This document shows positions 17,158 through 58,782 of a DNA stretch of 64,000 nt, one piece after another. The notes beneath the pieces are model-generated. The model did no database searches and was not told the DNA's origin. It saw only the letters and a list, made by a program, of their open reading frames with translations. The stretch is from Eledone cirrhosa. Its lineage: Eukaryota. Both the position numbers and the translations under genes were made by a program. Each line of letters starts with the position of its first letter. Within the stretch, counting starts at the first letter, position 1. The stretch covers positions 56,234,001 through 56,298,000 of the forward strand of contig OZ024742.1 of NCBI GenBank assembly GCA_964016885.1, in the 5' to 3' direction.

Positions 17158-20100
17158 TAAAGGACGTAAAATAAGAAAATATTTTTTTTAAAAAATTTAA
17201 AAAAAAATTTTTTTCTTACTTAAATTTTCACTCCAACTAATTAGTTTCTGCAATGGGATAAAGACAGTTACGTAATCCAACTGTCGAGAATTCATTGCGT
17301 CATCAGGAAGTCTATTCTCAGTAAAGTCTCCAGGCAATGCGCGGACACTGGCGGCTCATATAAAAATAATAATAATTCGGTAGATCGAACAGCTTGCGAG
17401 GACTGGATTCTTTGTACTGAAATTCTCACTGCTTCAAGTCAAATGGCCGATTCTAAAGAATCAATCACGTGACACAGAGGCTAGTTAGAAGGAATGGGAT
17501 GGTAAGATGACTGACGCCTACTAACACCCCAAAAAAAAAAATTTTTTTAGAAGTGGTTTTGACAAGTTTGCTCGACAAATCAGTGATTTGGAGATAAATA
17601 TAGATAATTTAATATATCAACTAACATAAGCGCACAGATGCACGCCCATGCCAGCAAATACACAGGTTATGTCATAGTACCTAGGTGGTTCAATGCAGGA
17701 GAATGCAGAACAATAATATAAAGGACGTAAAATAAGAAAATATTTTTTTAAAAAAATTTTAAAAAAAATTTTTTTCTTACTTAAATTTTCACTCCAACTA
17801 ATTAGTTTCTGCAATGGGATAAAGACAGTTACGTAATCCAACTGTCGAGAATTCATTGCGTCATCAGGAAGTCTATTCTCAGTAAAGTCTCCAGGCAATG
17901 CGCGGACACTGGCGGCTCATATAAAAATAATAATAATTCGGTAGATCGAACAGCTTGCGAGGACTGGATTCTTTGTACCGAAATTCTCACTGCTTCAAGT
18001 CAAATGGCCGATTCTAAAGAATCAATCACGTGACACAGAGGCTAGTTAGAAGGAATGGGATGGTAAGATGACTGACGCCTACTAACACCCCAAAAAAAAA
18101 AATTTTTTTAGAAGTGGTTTTGACAAGTTTGCTCGACAAATCAGTGATTTGGAGATAAATATAGATAATTTAATATATCAACTAACATAAGCGCACAGAT
18201 GCACGCCCATGCCAGCAAATACACAGGTTATGTCATAGTACCTAGGTGGTTCAATGCAGGAGAATGCAGAACAATAATATAAAGGACGTAAAATAAGAAA
18301 ATATTTTTTTAAAAAAATTTTAAAAAAAATTTTTTTCTTACTTAAATTTTCACTCCAACTAATTAGTTTCTGCAATGGGATAAAGACAGTTACGTAATCC
18401 AACTGTCGAGAATTCATTGCGTCATCAGGAAGTCTATTCTCAGTAAAGTCTCCAGGCAATGCGCGGACACTGGCGGCTCATATAAAAATAATAATAATTC
18501 GGTAGATCGAACAGCTTGCGAGGACTGGATTCTTTGTACCGAAATTCTCACTGCTTCAAGTCAAATGGCCGATTCTAAAGAATCAATCACGTGACACAGA
18601 GGCTAGTTAGAAGGAATGGGATGGTAAGATGACTGACGCCTACTAACACCCCAAAAAAAAAAATTTTTTTAGAAGTGGTTTTGACAAGTTTGCTCGACAA
18701 ATCAGTGATTTGGAGATAAATATAGATAATTTAATATATCAAGCTGGCATGGGCGTGCATCTGTGCGCTTATGTTAGTTGATATATTAAATTATCTATAT
18801 TTATCTCCAAATCACTGATTTGTCGAGCAAACTTGTCAAAACCACTTCTAAAAAATTTTTTTTTTTTGGGGTGTTAGTAGGCGTCAGTCATCTTACCATC
18901 CCATTCCTTCTAACTAGCCTCTGTGTCACGTGATTGATTCTTTAGAATCGGCCATTTGACTTGAAGCAGTGAGAATTTCGGTACAAAGAATCCAGTCCTC
19001 GCAAGCTGTTCGATCTACCGAATTATTATTATTTTTATATGAGCCGCCAGTGTCCGCGCATTGCCTGGAGACTTTACTGAGAATAGACTTCCTGATGACG
19101 CAATGAATTCTCGACAGTTGGATTACGTAACTGTCTTTATCCCATTGCAGAAACTAATTAGTTGGAGTGAAAATTTAAGTAAGAAAAACATTTTTTTTAA
19201 AATTTTTTTAAAAAAATATTTTCTTATTTTACGTCCTTTATATTATTGTTCTGCATTCTCCTGCATTGAACCACCTAGGTACTATGACATAACCTGTGTA
19301 TTTGCTGGCATGGGCGTGCATCTGTGCGCTTATGTTAGTTGATATATTAAATTATCTATATTTATCTCCAAATCACTGATTTGTCGAGCAAACTTGTCAA
19401 AACCACTTCTAAAAAAATTTTTTTTTTGGGGTGTTAGTAGGCGTCAGTCATCTTACCATCCCATTCCTTCTAACTAGCCTCTGTGTCACGTGATTGATTC
19501 TTTAGAATCGGCCATTTGACTTGAAGCAGTGAGAATTTCGGTACAAAGAATCCAGTCCTCGCAAGCTGTTCGATCTACCGAATTATTATTATTTTTATAT
19601 GAGCCGCCAGTGTCCGCGCATTGCCTGGAGACTTTACTGAGAATAGACTTCCTGATGACGCAATGAATTCTCGACAGTTGGATTACGTAACTGTCTTTAT
19701 CCCATTGCAGAAACTAATTAGTTGGAGTGAAAATTTAAGTAAGAAAAAAATTTTTTTTTAAATTTTTTTAAAAAAATATTTTCTTATTTTACGTCCTTTA
19801 TATTATTGTTCTGCATTCTCCTGCATTGAACCACCTAGGTACTATGACATAACCTGTGTATTTGCTGGCATGGGCGTGCATCTGTGCGCTTATGTTAGTT
19901 GATATATTAAATTATCTATATTTATCTCCAAATCACTGATTTGTCGAGCAAACTTGTCAAAACCACTTCTAAAAAAATTTTTTTTTTGGGGTGTTAGTAG
20001 GCGTCAGTCATCTTACCATCCCATTCCTTCTAACTAGCCTCTGTGTCACGTGATTGATTCTTTAGAATCGGCCATTTGACTTGAAGCAGTGAGAATTTCG

Positions 20101-21483
20101 GTACAAAGAATCCAGTCCTCGCAAGCTGTTCGATCTACCGAATTATTATTATTTTTATATGAGCCGCCAGTGTCCGCGCATTGCCTGGAGACTTTACTGA
20201 GAATAGACTTCCTGATGACGCAATGAATTCTCGACAGTTGGATTACGTAACTGTCTTTATCCCATTGCAGAAACTAATTAGTTGGAGTGAAAATTTAAGT
20301 AAGAAAAAAATTTTTTTTAAAATTTTTTAAAAAAAATATTTTCTTATTTTACGTCCTTTATATTATTGTTCTCCATTCTCCTGCATTGAACCACCTAGGT
20401 ACTATGACATAACCTGTGTATTTGCTGGCATGGGCGTGCATCTGTGCGCTTATGTTAGTTGATATATTAAATTATCTATATTTATCTCCAAATCACTGAT
20501 TTGTCGAGCAAACTTGTCAAAACCACTTCTAAAAAAATTTTTTTTTTTGGGGTGTTAGTAGGCGTCAGTCATCTTACCATCCCATTCCTTCTAACTAGCC
20601 TCTGTGTCACGTGATTGATTCTTTAGAATCGGCCATTTGACTTGAAGCAGTGAGAATTTCGGTACAAAGAATCCAGTCCTCGCAAGCTGTTCGATCTACC
20701 GAATTATTATTATTTTTATATGAGCCGCCAGTGTCCGCGCATTGCCTGGAGACTTTACTGAGAATAGACTTCCTGATGACGCAATGAATTCTCGACAGTT
20801 GGATTACGTAACTGTCTTTATCCCATTGCAGAAACTAATTAGTTGGAGTGAAAATTTAAGTAAGAAAAAAATTTTTTTTAAAATTTTTTTAAAAAAATAT
20901 TTTCTTATTTTACGTCCTTTATATTATTGTTCTGCATTCTCCTGCATTGAACCACCTAGGTACTATGACATAACCTGTGTATTTGCTGGCATGGGCGTGC
21001 ATCTGTGCGCTTATGTTAGTTGATATATTAAATTATCTATATTTATCTCCAAATCACTGATTTGTCGAGCAAACTTGTCAAAACCACTTCTAAAAAAATT
21101 TTTTTTTTTTGGGGTGTTAGTAGGCGTCAGTCATCTTACCATCCCATTCCTTCTAACTAGCCTCTGTGTCACGTGATTGATTCTTTAGAATCGGCCATTT
21201 GACTTGAAGCAGTGAGAATTTCGGTACAAAGAATCCAGTCCTCGCAAGCTGTTCGATCTACCGAATTATTATTATTTTTATATGAGCCGCCAGTGTCCGC
21301 GCATTGCCTGGAGACTTTACTGAGAATAGACTTCCTGATGACGCAATGAATTCTCGACAGTTGGATTACGTAACTGTCTTTATCCCATTGCAGAAACTAA
21401 TTAGTTGGAGTGAAAATTTAAGTAAGAAAAAAATTTTTTTTTAAATTTTTTTAAAAAAATATTTTCTTATTTTACGTCCTTTA
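17158..21483. repeat. Palindromic tandem array of ~561-bp HHR-bearing units (retrozyme-like family D)
   Basis: ~2.8 units in minus orientation (17158-18742) fused to ~4.9 units in plus orientation (18743-21483). Units are near-identical, and both outer ends stop at ACGTCCTTTA|(TA)n. Confidence 0.95.
19087..19168 (+). ncRNA. Type I hammerhead, one per unit (+: 19087, 19647, 20207, 20768, 21330; -: 17230-17311, 17791-17872, 18352-18433)
   Basis: ACTTC-CTGATGA-C GCAATG...CATTGC A-GAAA-CTAATTAG-TT^GGAGT. Helix II covaries in the diverged copy at 58526-58607. Confidence 0.88.
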
Positions 21484-57430: not shown

Positions 57431-57455
57431 TATATATATATATATATATATATAT

Positions 57456-58782
57456 GAAAGACGTAAAATAAGAACATTTTAAAAATTAAAAATTAACTTA
57501 CTTACTAAAATTTTCACTCCAACTAATTAGTTTCTGTAATGGGATAAAGATAGTTACGCAATGTAACCGTCGAGAATTCATTACGTCATCAGGGAGTCTA
57601 TTCTCAGCTAAGTCTCCAGGCAATGCGCGGACACTAGGGACTCATATAAAAATAATAATAATTCGGTGGATGGAACAGCTAGCGGGGACTGAATTCCAAA
57701 GCACTGAAAAAGTTCACTGTCTCTGGTCAAATGGCAGATTCTAAAGAATCAATCACGTGACACTGAGGCTAGTCGGAAGGAGTGGGTGGTAAAATGACAA
57801 AAGCCTACTACCACTACAATGAGTTAGTAGTGGATTTGGCAGGTTTGCTCAACAAATAAATAATTTGGAGATAAATATAGAGAATTAGTATATTTACCAA
57901 CATATGCGTACAGATGTACACTAATGCTAGCAAATACATAAGTTATGTCATAGTACCTAGGTGGTTCAATGCAGGAGGATGCGGAACAATTATATGAAAG
58001 ACGTAAAATAAGAAAATTTTAAAAATTAAAAATTAACTTACTTACTAAAATTTTCACTCCTAGAGTGAAAATTTTAGTAAGTAAGTTAATTTTTAATTTT
58101 TAAAATTTTCTTATTTTACGTCTTTCATATAATTGTTCCGCATCCTCCTGCATTGAACCACCTAGGTACTATGACATAACTTATGTATTTGCTAGCATTA
58201 GTGTACATCTGTACGCATATGTTGGTAAATATACTAATTCTCTATATTTATCTCCAAATTATTTATTTGTTGAGCAAACCTGCCAAATCCACTACTAACT
58301 CATTGTAGTGGTAGTAGGCTTTTGTCATTTTACCACCCCACTCCTTCTGACTAGCCTCAGTGTCACGTGATTGATTCTTTAGAATCTGCCATTTGACCAG
58401 AGACAGTGAACTTTTTCAGTGCTTTGGAATTCAGTCCCCGCTAGCTGTTCCATCCACCGAATTATTATTATTTTTATATGAGTCCCTAGTGTCCGCGCAT
58501 TGCCTGGAGACTTAGCTGAGAATAGACTCCCTGATGACGTAATGAATTCTCGACGGTTACATTGCGTAACTATCTTTATCCCATTACAGAAACTAATTAG
58601 TTGGAGTGAAAATTTTAGTAAGTAAGTTAATTTTTAATTTTTAAAATTTTCTTATTTTACGTCTTTCATATAATTGTTCTGCATCCTCCTGCATTGAACC
58701 ACCTAGGTACTATGACATAACTTATGTATCTGCTAACATTAGTGTACATCTGTACGCATATGTTGGTAAATATACTAATTCT
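57456..58782. mobile_element. Family D relative: 540-bp unit, head-to-head palindrome (HHRs 57516-57597 minus, 58526-58607 plus)
   Basis: Homologous to the 17158-21483 units; inversion junction at 58060-58063. Confidence 0.92.

Follow-up and report, generated by a model that had tools for sequence, protein, structure and literature searches.

Hammerhead ribozymes canonically close helix II, at its junction with the catalytic core, with the pair G10.1-C11.1, and it may be asked what it means when a whole repeat family carries something else at this position. The question is raised by a stretch of 64,000 nucleotides of the Eledone cirrhosa genome (GCA_964016885.1, contig OZ024742.1, positions 56,234,001 to 56,298,000; hereafter, the window), which contains tandem copies of a repeat, here called family D, whose type I hammerhead motif presents C after the CUGANGA box and A before GAAA. 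In a first-pass annotation made from the sequence, this C·A was read as a selected structural variant, possibly of an attenuated ribozyme, within a fold supported by covariation. We find that the fold is supported by covariation, on a handful of events, and that within family D the mismatch is likely a tolerated N·A loop and not a specific pair. Its recurrence across hammerhead families is the better sign of constraint and gives modest support to C·A as a preferred tolerated state.

Results

Family D is a repeat of ~560 bp with one type I hammerhead motif per unit. A motif scan of both strands detected its hammerhead ten times in the window: five times on the + strand (19087-21411), three times on the - strand (17230-18433) and twice in a second subfamily, the units of the two subfamilies being 82% identical (blastn). 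Insertion 1 (17155-21486) consists of two tandem arrays placed head to head with (TA)n at both ends, and insertion 2, with hammerheads at 57516-57597 (-) and 58526-58607 (+), is built on the same plan (Table 1). The right-arm units of insertion 1 showed 0-7 letter differences over ~450 letters with A/T runs collapsed, and eight units of the window were near-identical in the same sense (0-7 differences). No open reading frame (ORF) of at least 120 amino acids was found over 17155-21486, except for one that runs through TA repeats and ends at 17160. Counted over the 3.0-Gb assembly with patterns tied to the core and stem III, family D gave ~10,744 matches, on many contigs, and a reversed-pattern control gave none. 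Among 125 distinct ends of arrays at the loci examined, 87 had (TA)n no more than 200 bases away, in most cases 50-78 bases beyond the palindrome. At one locus (L207, G000:C3:255015000-255024500) family D forms a long satellite of at least 17 consecutive units in 9.5 kb, in which one variant returns every fourth or fifth unit.

Retrozymes without long terminal repeats (non-LTR retrozymes) are non-coding repeats in tandem, each unit holding a single type I hammerhead, and have been proposed to be non-autonomous derivatives of Penelope-like elements (PLEs) (PMC7229834; 10.64898/2026.07.22.740005). PLEs themselves leave tandem and inverted 5'-truncated copies, with (TA)n targets in the Hydra clade (PMC8557442). 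Family D presents both sets of features: it is non-coding and arranged in tandem, at least two units in a row, each with a single type I hammerhead, it is dispersed at high copy number, and it shows tandem plus inverted 5'-truncated copies and a (TA)n target. Judged from its sequence, the array structure is that of a PLE or non-LTR retrozyme.

The reference hammerhead (Table 1) has the CUGANGA and GAAA boxes, A15.1-U16.1 and H17, the cut site being predicted from the hammerhead consensus after 19163 (GUU). Its three helices are supported by covariation and stem I is open, as in type I; some subfamilies have one more stem I pair, inserted on both sides. It departs from the type in that, where G10.1-C11.1 should stack on A9·G12, C·A, A·A or U·A intervenes. 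The Rfam hammerhead model gave no match at gathering score in four loci, and an Rfam scan of the window gave no hammerhead among the 150 of 209 matches listed.

The four hammerheads compared in the first-pass annotation lie where it placed them, at 19087-19168 (+), 58526-58607 (+), 36619-36714 (-) and 52966-53047 (-), and the first two, one from each subfamily, have C after CUGANGA and A before GAAA as described. Between them, helix II changes from GCAATG/CATTGC to GTAATG/CATTAC, that is, by one pair changed on both sides, and the inner hairpin largely keeps its pairing, with one pair broken in the 58526 copy. The change of stem I from ACTTC to ACTCC against GGAGT is present in the letters, but it is one-sided (U·G to C-G) and both forms occur inside the GCAATG subfamily. 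Two sequences that are 82% identical thus provide a single compensatory pair and no significance; the covariation then claimed does reach significance in an alignment of the family.

For that alignment we used 72 of 74 distinct copies, a diverse choice in which those without C at 10.1 were intentionally over-represented; the two left out, both from one locus (L107), have the inner hairpin deleted. The 24 proposed pairs were formed in 94.6% of 1,710 cells, a value reached in none of 500 shuffles, and registers slid along the alignment were only 38-53% paired. Helix II pair 2 was AU in 36 copies, UA in 14, GC in 13 and CG in 9, with none of the 72 unpaired, and pair 5 was GC in 37, UA in 28 and another combination in 7. 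In a home-made tree-aware G-test, written in imitation of R-scape and using 200 null alignments, pair 2 reached E=0.01 with all 5,253 column pairs taken into account. The second rank among these went to pair 5 (E 2.6), and two distal pairs had E 9.9 and 11.7; rescaled to the 24 proposed pairs, these three values become about 0.012, 0.045 and 0.053. A first tree of the flanking sequences had included copies with junction sequence in the flank; on a second, limited to copies whose flanks are intact (81 of 124), both sides of pair 5 changed twice and on the same two branches, and pair 2 changed three times per side, two of them on shared branches. The six defined CUGANGA positions showed no lineage-level change while N7 varies, in copies partly selected on these letters. 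Stem III was invariant in the alignment, which is uninformative because the search was built on its letters. Stem I pair 21/105 also seemed to change on both sides; this is an artefact of the extra pair that some subfamilies carry, and we left it out of the count. Just 5' of the predicted pseudoknot strand described below, a hairpin at about 19041-19073 and 58480-58512 has apparently kept its pairing with changed sequence across family D subfamilies.

Does the same conservation extend to the mismatch? Genome-wide, C…A was present in 10,214 of the ~10,744 copies (95%), the 5' base being other than C in 485, the 3' base other than A in 48, and both in three. The family consensus is therefore non-canonical, as had been claimed: G-C was found in 0 of ~10,744 copies, and a 5' G is absent from all 48 that lack the A. 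In the first 100 of the 485 non-C copies, counted by eye, about 65 had A, 32 U and 3 G. Copies with U at 10.1 (151) and copies with G>A at its CpG partner (109) are similar in number and both are scattered over subfamilies, as decay after insertion predicts. A·A, at about 320 copies (by subtraction), is clustered on the first flank tree; on the second, C19099 changed once. Columns 10.1 and 11.1 showed no covariation in the tree-aware test. A19149 underwent no lineage-level change; since 93 of 169 flank columns (55%) are equally invariant, this is not evidence of selection by itself. The pair above the mismatch, G19100-C19148, likewise showed no lineage-level change. It is this combination, an A·A lineage below an invariant G-C and an A no more constant than over half of the flank, that suggests a tolerated N·A loop, and the proposal of a selected C·A pair is not supported within the family. 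Adjacent units sharing U at 10.1 looked at first like a sign of transposition through a U·A RNA, but the cases are ambiguous: two of the five are (TA)n-terminated duplicates, two have C on the inverted arm, and one has no further unit to compare.

The first-pass annotation had also pointed to the same C·A in unrelated hammerheads at 36619 and 52966. The letters are there, but both copies are decayed, and the families are unrelated only in showing no blastn similarity to each other. The 36619 copy, accompanied by part of an inverted arm at about 36743-36860, has lost the pair above C·A through a change private to it, a pair that is intact in 20 of 20 complete motifs matched at other loci; in the 52966 copy, helix II is shortened and poorly paired. 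We surveyed 1.06 Mb of window, targeted and random loci, in which 191 distinct motifs fell into 31 clusters. Among the 22 of 31 clusters listed, C·A occurred in three seeded families and in two single motifs from random stretches, and U·U, A·G, G·U, A-U, G-C or a bulged A stood at this position in the rest. Requiring C…A and a long arm, a pattern gave 2,782 matches (control, 77), and 5' C with another 3' base gave 641 (control, 161), many of the latter being one repeat that lacks hammerhead stems in the single copy inspected. At 20 C…A places inspected we found at least six further C·A motif types, several of them met once. Above the mismatch, family D has G-C and the 52966 family mostly G-C, the 36619 family has C-G, and a further locus (L181) has A-U; since the pair differs in this way, the 10.1·11.1 numbering is the general one. 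Recurrence of this kind is what modestly favours the part of the earlier claim that saw selection, although the families may also share C·A by common descent. A long-armed hammerhead with C after the core, starting at 50781 (-) in the window, resembles a single C·A motif at another locus (L151).

At L181, two C·A hammerheads flank an ORF with motifs of Hydra-clade PLEs. The element (L181:4244-7400; G000:C1:47567000-47576000) is a PLE of almost full length, with frameshifts; C·A hammerheads lie in both of its pseudo-LTRs (pLTRs), and it has close relatives at L182-L185 and L194. By eye, the ORFs of L181, L184 and L194 carry the RWR/RWK, DKT and CxCX5C motifs that match the description of the Hydra clade, so that a reverse transcriptase-endonuclease (RT-EN) of this clade is present in the genome; Pfam gave no match on these three ORFs. 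Elsewhere (L140/L092, G000:C28 near 82.53 Mb), a PLE RT-EN fragment is followed on the same strand, ~900 bases downstream, by a hammerhead of the 52966 family.

Two further features of the motif concern how it may fold and act. The sequence GAGAA, which directly precedes stem I on its 5' side, could pair with UUCUC of the internal loop in helix II, and where the former reads GAAAA the latter mostly follows: the first 100 of 190 GAAAA copies had UUUUC in 92, UUCUC in 7 and another sequence in 1 (by eye). Over 23 motifs, summed pairing was higher within own families than between swapped families (p=0.002). A GAGAA/UUCUC pseudoknot is likely, though its covariation falls short of significance on the tree. 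In the computed monomer ensemble, the CUGAU box pairs with AUUAG of the palindrome with probability 0.66-0.82 and monomer stem III forms with 0.13-0.21, while the duplex of two palindromes has a computed energy of -10.8 kcal/mol. This pairing and the weak monomer stem III predict an inactive monomer and an active dimer; a dimer model has already been published for PLE hammerheads (PMC4209133, PMC6765202).

The window also contains at least nine further hammerhead-like motifs, which belong to other families and close helix II next to the core with G·U, G-C, U·U or A-U, several of these motifs forming inverted pairs, and a degenerate U·U hammerhead near 32880 within the 5'-truncated PLE. These and the remaining elements are listed in Table 1.

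Table 1. Coordinates of the family D hammerhead, its insertions and other elements within the window.
Feature	Position	Strand	Evidence or remarks
Type I hammerhead, reference copy	19087-19168	+	motif scan
Further copies of reference motif	19647, 20207, 20768, 21330	+	motif scan
Further copies of reference motif	17230, 17791, 18352	-	motif scan
Predicted pseudoknot 5' strand, GAGAAU	19079-19084	+	alignment, swap tests
Stem I 5' strand	19087-19091	+	partner 19164-19168
Core box CUGAUGA (C3-A9)	19092-19098	+	motif scan
C at 10.1 (or extra base after A9)	19099	+	replaced by A in one lineage and by U in scattered copies
Proximal helix II 5' strand	19100-19105	+	partner 19143-19148
Predicted pseudoknot 3' strand, AUUCUC, in helix II internal loop	19107-19112	+	
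Distal helix II hairpin	19113-19135	+	sequence variable; 87% of cells paired
A at 11.1 (or extra A before G12)	19149	+	another base in 48 of ~10,744 copies
GAAA box, palindromic CUAAUUAG stem III, U16.1-U17	19150-19163	+	
Family D insertion 1, left arm	17155-18742	-	~2.8 tandem ~560-bp units; (TA)n end
Family D insertion 1, right arm	18743-21486	+	~4.9 tandem units; head-to-head with left arm; (TA)n end
Family D insertion 2, GTAATG subfamily	57451-58792	.	inverted arms join near 58060
Decayed copy of second C·A hammerhead family	36619-36714	-	pair above is C-G in family
Decayed, internally deleted copy of third, older C·A family	52966-53047	-	pair above mostly G-C
Further hammerhead-like motif	7508-7578	-	motif scan
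Further hammerhead-like motif	12114-12168	+	motif scan
Further hammerhead-like motif	14907-14980	+	motif scan
Further hammerhead-like motifs	29585-29942	both	motif scan
Further hammerhead-like motif	30427-30502	-	motif scan
Further hammerhead-like motif	39713-39755	-	motif scan
Further hammerhead-like motif	53531-53573	-	motif scan
Further hammerhead-like motif	61669-61734	-	motif scan
Further hammerhead-like motif	63662-63721	+	motif scan
5'-truncated PLE	32640-34240	-	RT end, CxxC linker and GIY-YIG-like region, interrupted by stops
GIY-YIG endonuclease fragment of another PLE	9994-10392	+	Pfam PF01541
Long interspersed nuclear element (LINE)	22258-27568	+	zinc-knuckle ORF1 (by eye); endonuclease + RT ORF2 split by stop (PF03372, PF00078)
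27-bp tandem repeat array	8038-9600		

Discussion

On balance we consider it probable that family D is a non-coding ~560-bp repeat whose hammerhead likely cuts its own tandem transcript as a dimer, whose RNA is likely copied into (TA)n sites by PLE enzymes, and whose C·A is likely a tolerated one-by-one loop and not a tuned brake. The motif, its copy number, the inverted-plus-tandem arrays at (TA)n, the compensation in helix II, the lineage-invariant G-C and the A·A lineage are observed; from them we infer cleavage, dimerisation, circles and a partner element. According to the computed ensembles, a lone monomer would be off, its stem III being only a palindrome whose AUUAG pairs with the CUGAU box. 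Two neighbouring units could pair through AACUAAUUAGUU and free their cores, GAGAA/UUCUC would dock the stem I flank onto helix II, and cleavage at GUU after 19163 would release unit-length RNA, perhaps circularised. The reverse transcriptase and GIY-YIG endonuclease of a Hydra-clade PLE may then act in trans, and target-primed copying at (TA)n by such an enzyme would generate near-identical tandem units. At the base of helix II the sequence would be that of the PLE consensus, CUGANGA-H-G…C-GAAA (H = A, C, U), plus one further A ahead of G12.

Several observations weigh against this account. None of the Watson-Crick variants that lie one step from C·A (U-A in 151 copies; C-G in 17 of the 48 without A) has given rise to a visible lineage, in keeping with selection for an open loop. 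The pair above the mismatch is C-G or A-U in other C·A families, so the idea of a kept G-C with two extra bases is not general. No autonomous element sharing family D sequence was present among the ~200 loci examined, the genome not having been searched for one. The pseudoknot change amounts to one or two events and was not significant in the tree-aware test (5 AU of 72); moreover, the windows of the swap test were chosen after some families had been seen, and 10 of the 23 motifs paired no better than half of their swapped controls. Finally, eight of nine retrozyme dimers were uncleaved in vitro according to a preprint (10.64898/2026.07.22.740005).

A more ambitious version of the same scheme, which we put forward only tentatively, is that these motifs constitute a distinct subclass of retroelement hammerheads. 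In it, a long helix II docked by the pseudoknot would let the core replace G10.1-C11.1 by an N·A loop with a structural A, and the RNA would be silent as a monomer, where its palindrome would sequester the core, and fast once dimeric. This would provide a copy-number switch gating circularisation and rolling-circle insertion in several PLE families of this genome.

One rival hypothesis, which we regard as possible but doubtful, is that C·A (or A·A) is a selected attenuator: with the G lost from the A9/G10.1 metal site, cleavage would slow and multimeric or circular RNA would survive for reverse transcription. A metal ion does bind at A9/G10.1 (PMC6257768), U·U is reportedly the mismatch that this pair tolerates best, so that C·A would be slower (PMC3088659), and an axolotl hammerhead with U·U was cleaved to 22% in 1 h as a monomer (PMC7229834), although the same variant is efficient as a dimer (PMC7229834). 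The complete lack of canonical G-C in family D agrees with attenuation, yet it is expected in any case because G-C lies two transversions away, and the G-C pair one step up shows no lineage-level change. The excess of long motifs in which a 5' C is followed by A instead of another base also speaks for it, but the pattern behind the larger count demanded C and A and finds such families by construction. Furthermore, palindromic stem III already offers an off state, and a tertiary pseudoknot would speed the ribozyme, not slow it (PMC3088659).

That the mismatch is unselected inheritance from one ancestral master element, with few substitutions since and a common ancestor for all families that share it, seems unlikely to us. 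It would explain why A19149 is no more constant than most flank columns and why C19099 changed once, and the families are alike in architecture (long helix II, palindromic stem III of 6-8 nucleotides). Against it, blastn detects no similarity among them, and the pairs above the mismatch have been replaced while C and A were kept; the same motif also occurs in a Chara element from another part of the PLE tree (PMC8557442). We give still less credit to the idea that the fold persists because the PLE enzyme uses it for recognition or priming, cleavage having been lost. U17 is a weak cleavage base, which is a point in its favour. In addition, PLE hammerheads are weakly active in vitro, with other functions not ruled out (PMC4209133), and Naiad PLEs spread without canonical hammerheads (PMC8557442). 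Nevertheless, the constancy of the six defined CUGANGA positions beside a varying N7, in copies partly selected on these letters, is what catalysis requires, and related animal retrozymes cleave as dimers and form circles (PMC7229834).

Irrespective of the mismatch, successive subfamilies of a family of ~10,700 copies have kept the fold through matched changes, which indicates that copying depended on structure. The natural C·A, A·A and U·A variants and the pseudoknot swap are available for direct assay. The family D motif would escape searches that insist on a pair beside the core.

Comparison with known systems

Literature searches on the mismatch and on cephalopod, Penelope and retrozyme work gave no account of this C·A variant among the papers listed, although Lünse et al. 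2017 may cover it, and no 10.1·11.1 values were met in the accessible part of a hammerhead deep mutagenesis study (PMC9901934). U10.1·U11.1 was treated by Perreault et al. 2011 (PMC3088659). The role of the hammerhead in endonuclease-bearing PLEs has been described as unclear (PMC8557442).

Hydra-clade PLE hammerheads resemble family D in being of type I, with the stem III palindrome GAAACU…AGU and a mismatch at the helix II base, and their elements likewise have (TA)n targets and an inverted 5'-truncated copy (PMC8557442). File S2 of Craig et al. 2021 gives U·U at this position in most Hydra families and U·C in Penelope-15_HM (PMC8557442). The Hydra motifs listed there have a short helix II with loops of 3-10 nucleotides, and none has C·A, whereas family D has a helix II arm of ~50 nucleotides with an internal loop, a distal hairpin and a predicted pseudoknot, and codes for no protein. 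Closer in letters is PLE-X1_cBra of Chara braunii, with CUGAUGA-C, G-C above and A-GAAA (PMC8557442, File S2); unlike family D, it is a single autonomous, EN-minus element of a green alga with a short loop 2, and it is tabulated as canonical (PMC8557442). The minimal hammerheads of PLEs share with family D the CUGANGA-H-G…C-GAAA consensus, palindromic stem III and the dimer model (PMC4209133). AGAAA was found in one of 56 aligned minimal motifs (PMC4209133); in family D the extra A before G12 is family-wide and helix II is long and capable of tertiary contact.

Among retrozymes, the axolotl HHR_Amex2, which has ~60,000 copies, also carries a mismatch at the helix II base, in this case U·U, and the better cleavage as a dimer is known from Amex2 (PMC7229834). 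Metazoan non-LTR retrozymes are, like family D, non-coding tandem repeats in thousands of copies, with units typically of 150-450 bp as compared to ~560 bp (PMC7229834; 10.64898/2026.07.22.740005). Family D differs from them in its inverted-plus-tandem arrays and in its C·A or A·A. Pseudoknot-stabilised hammerheads pair the stem I region with loop II, as predicted for family D; the solved example keeps G10.1-C11.1 on A9·G12, and in family D the predicted contact would involve an internal loop, above the mismatch (PMC3088659, PMC11300833). Thus, the mismatch itself is already known and tabulated for a PLE, and what is new is its long-armed, probably pseudoknotted N·A form in a retrozyme of ~10,700 copies.

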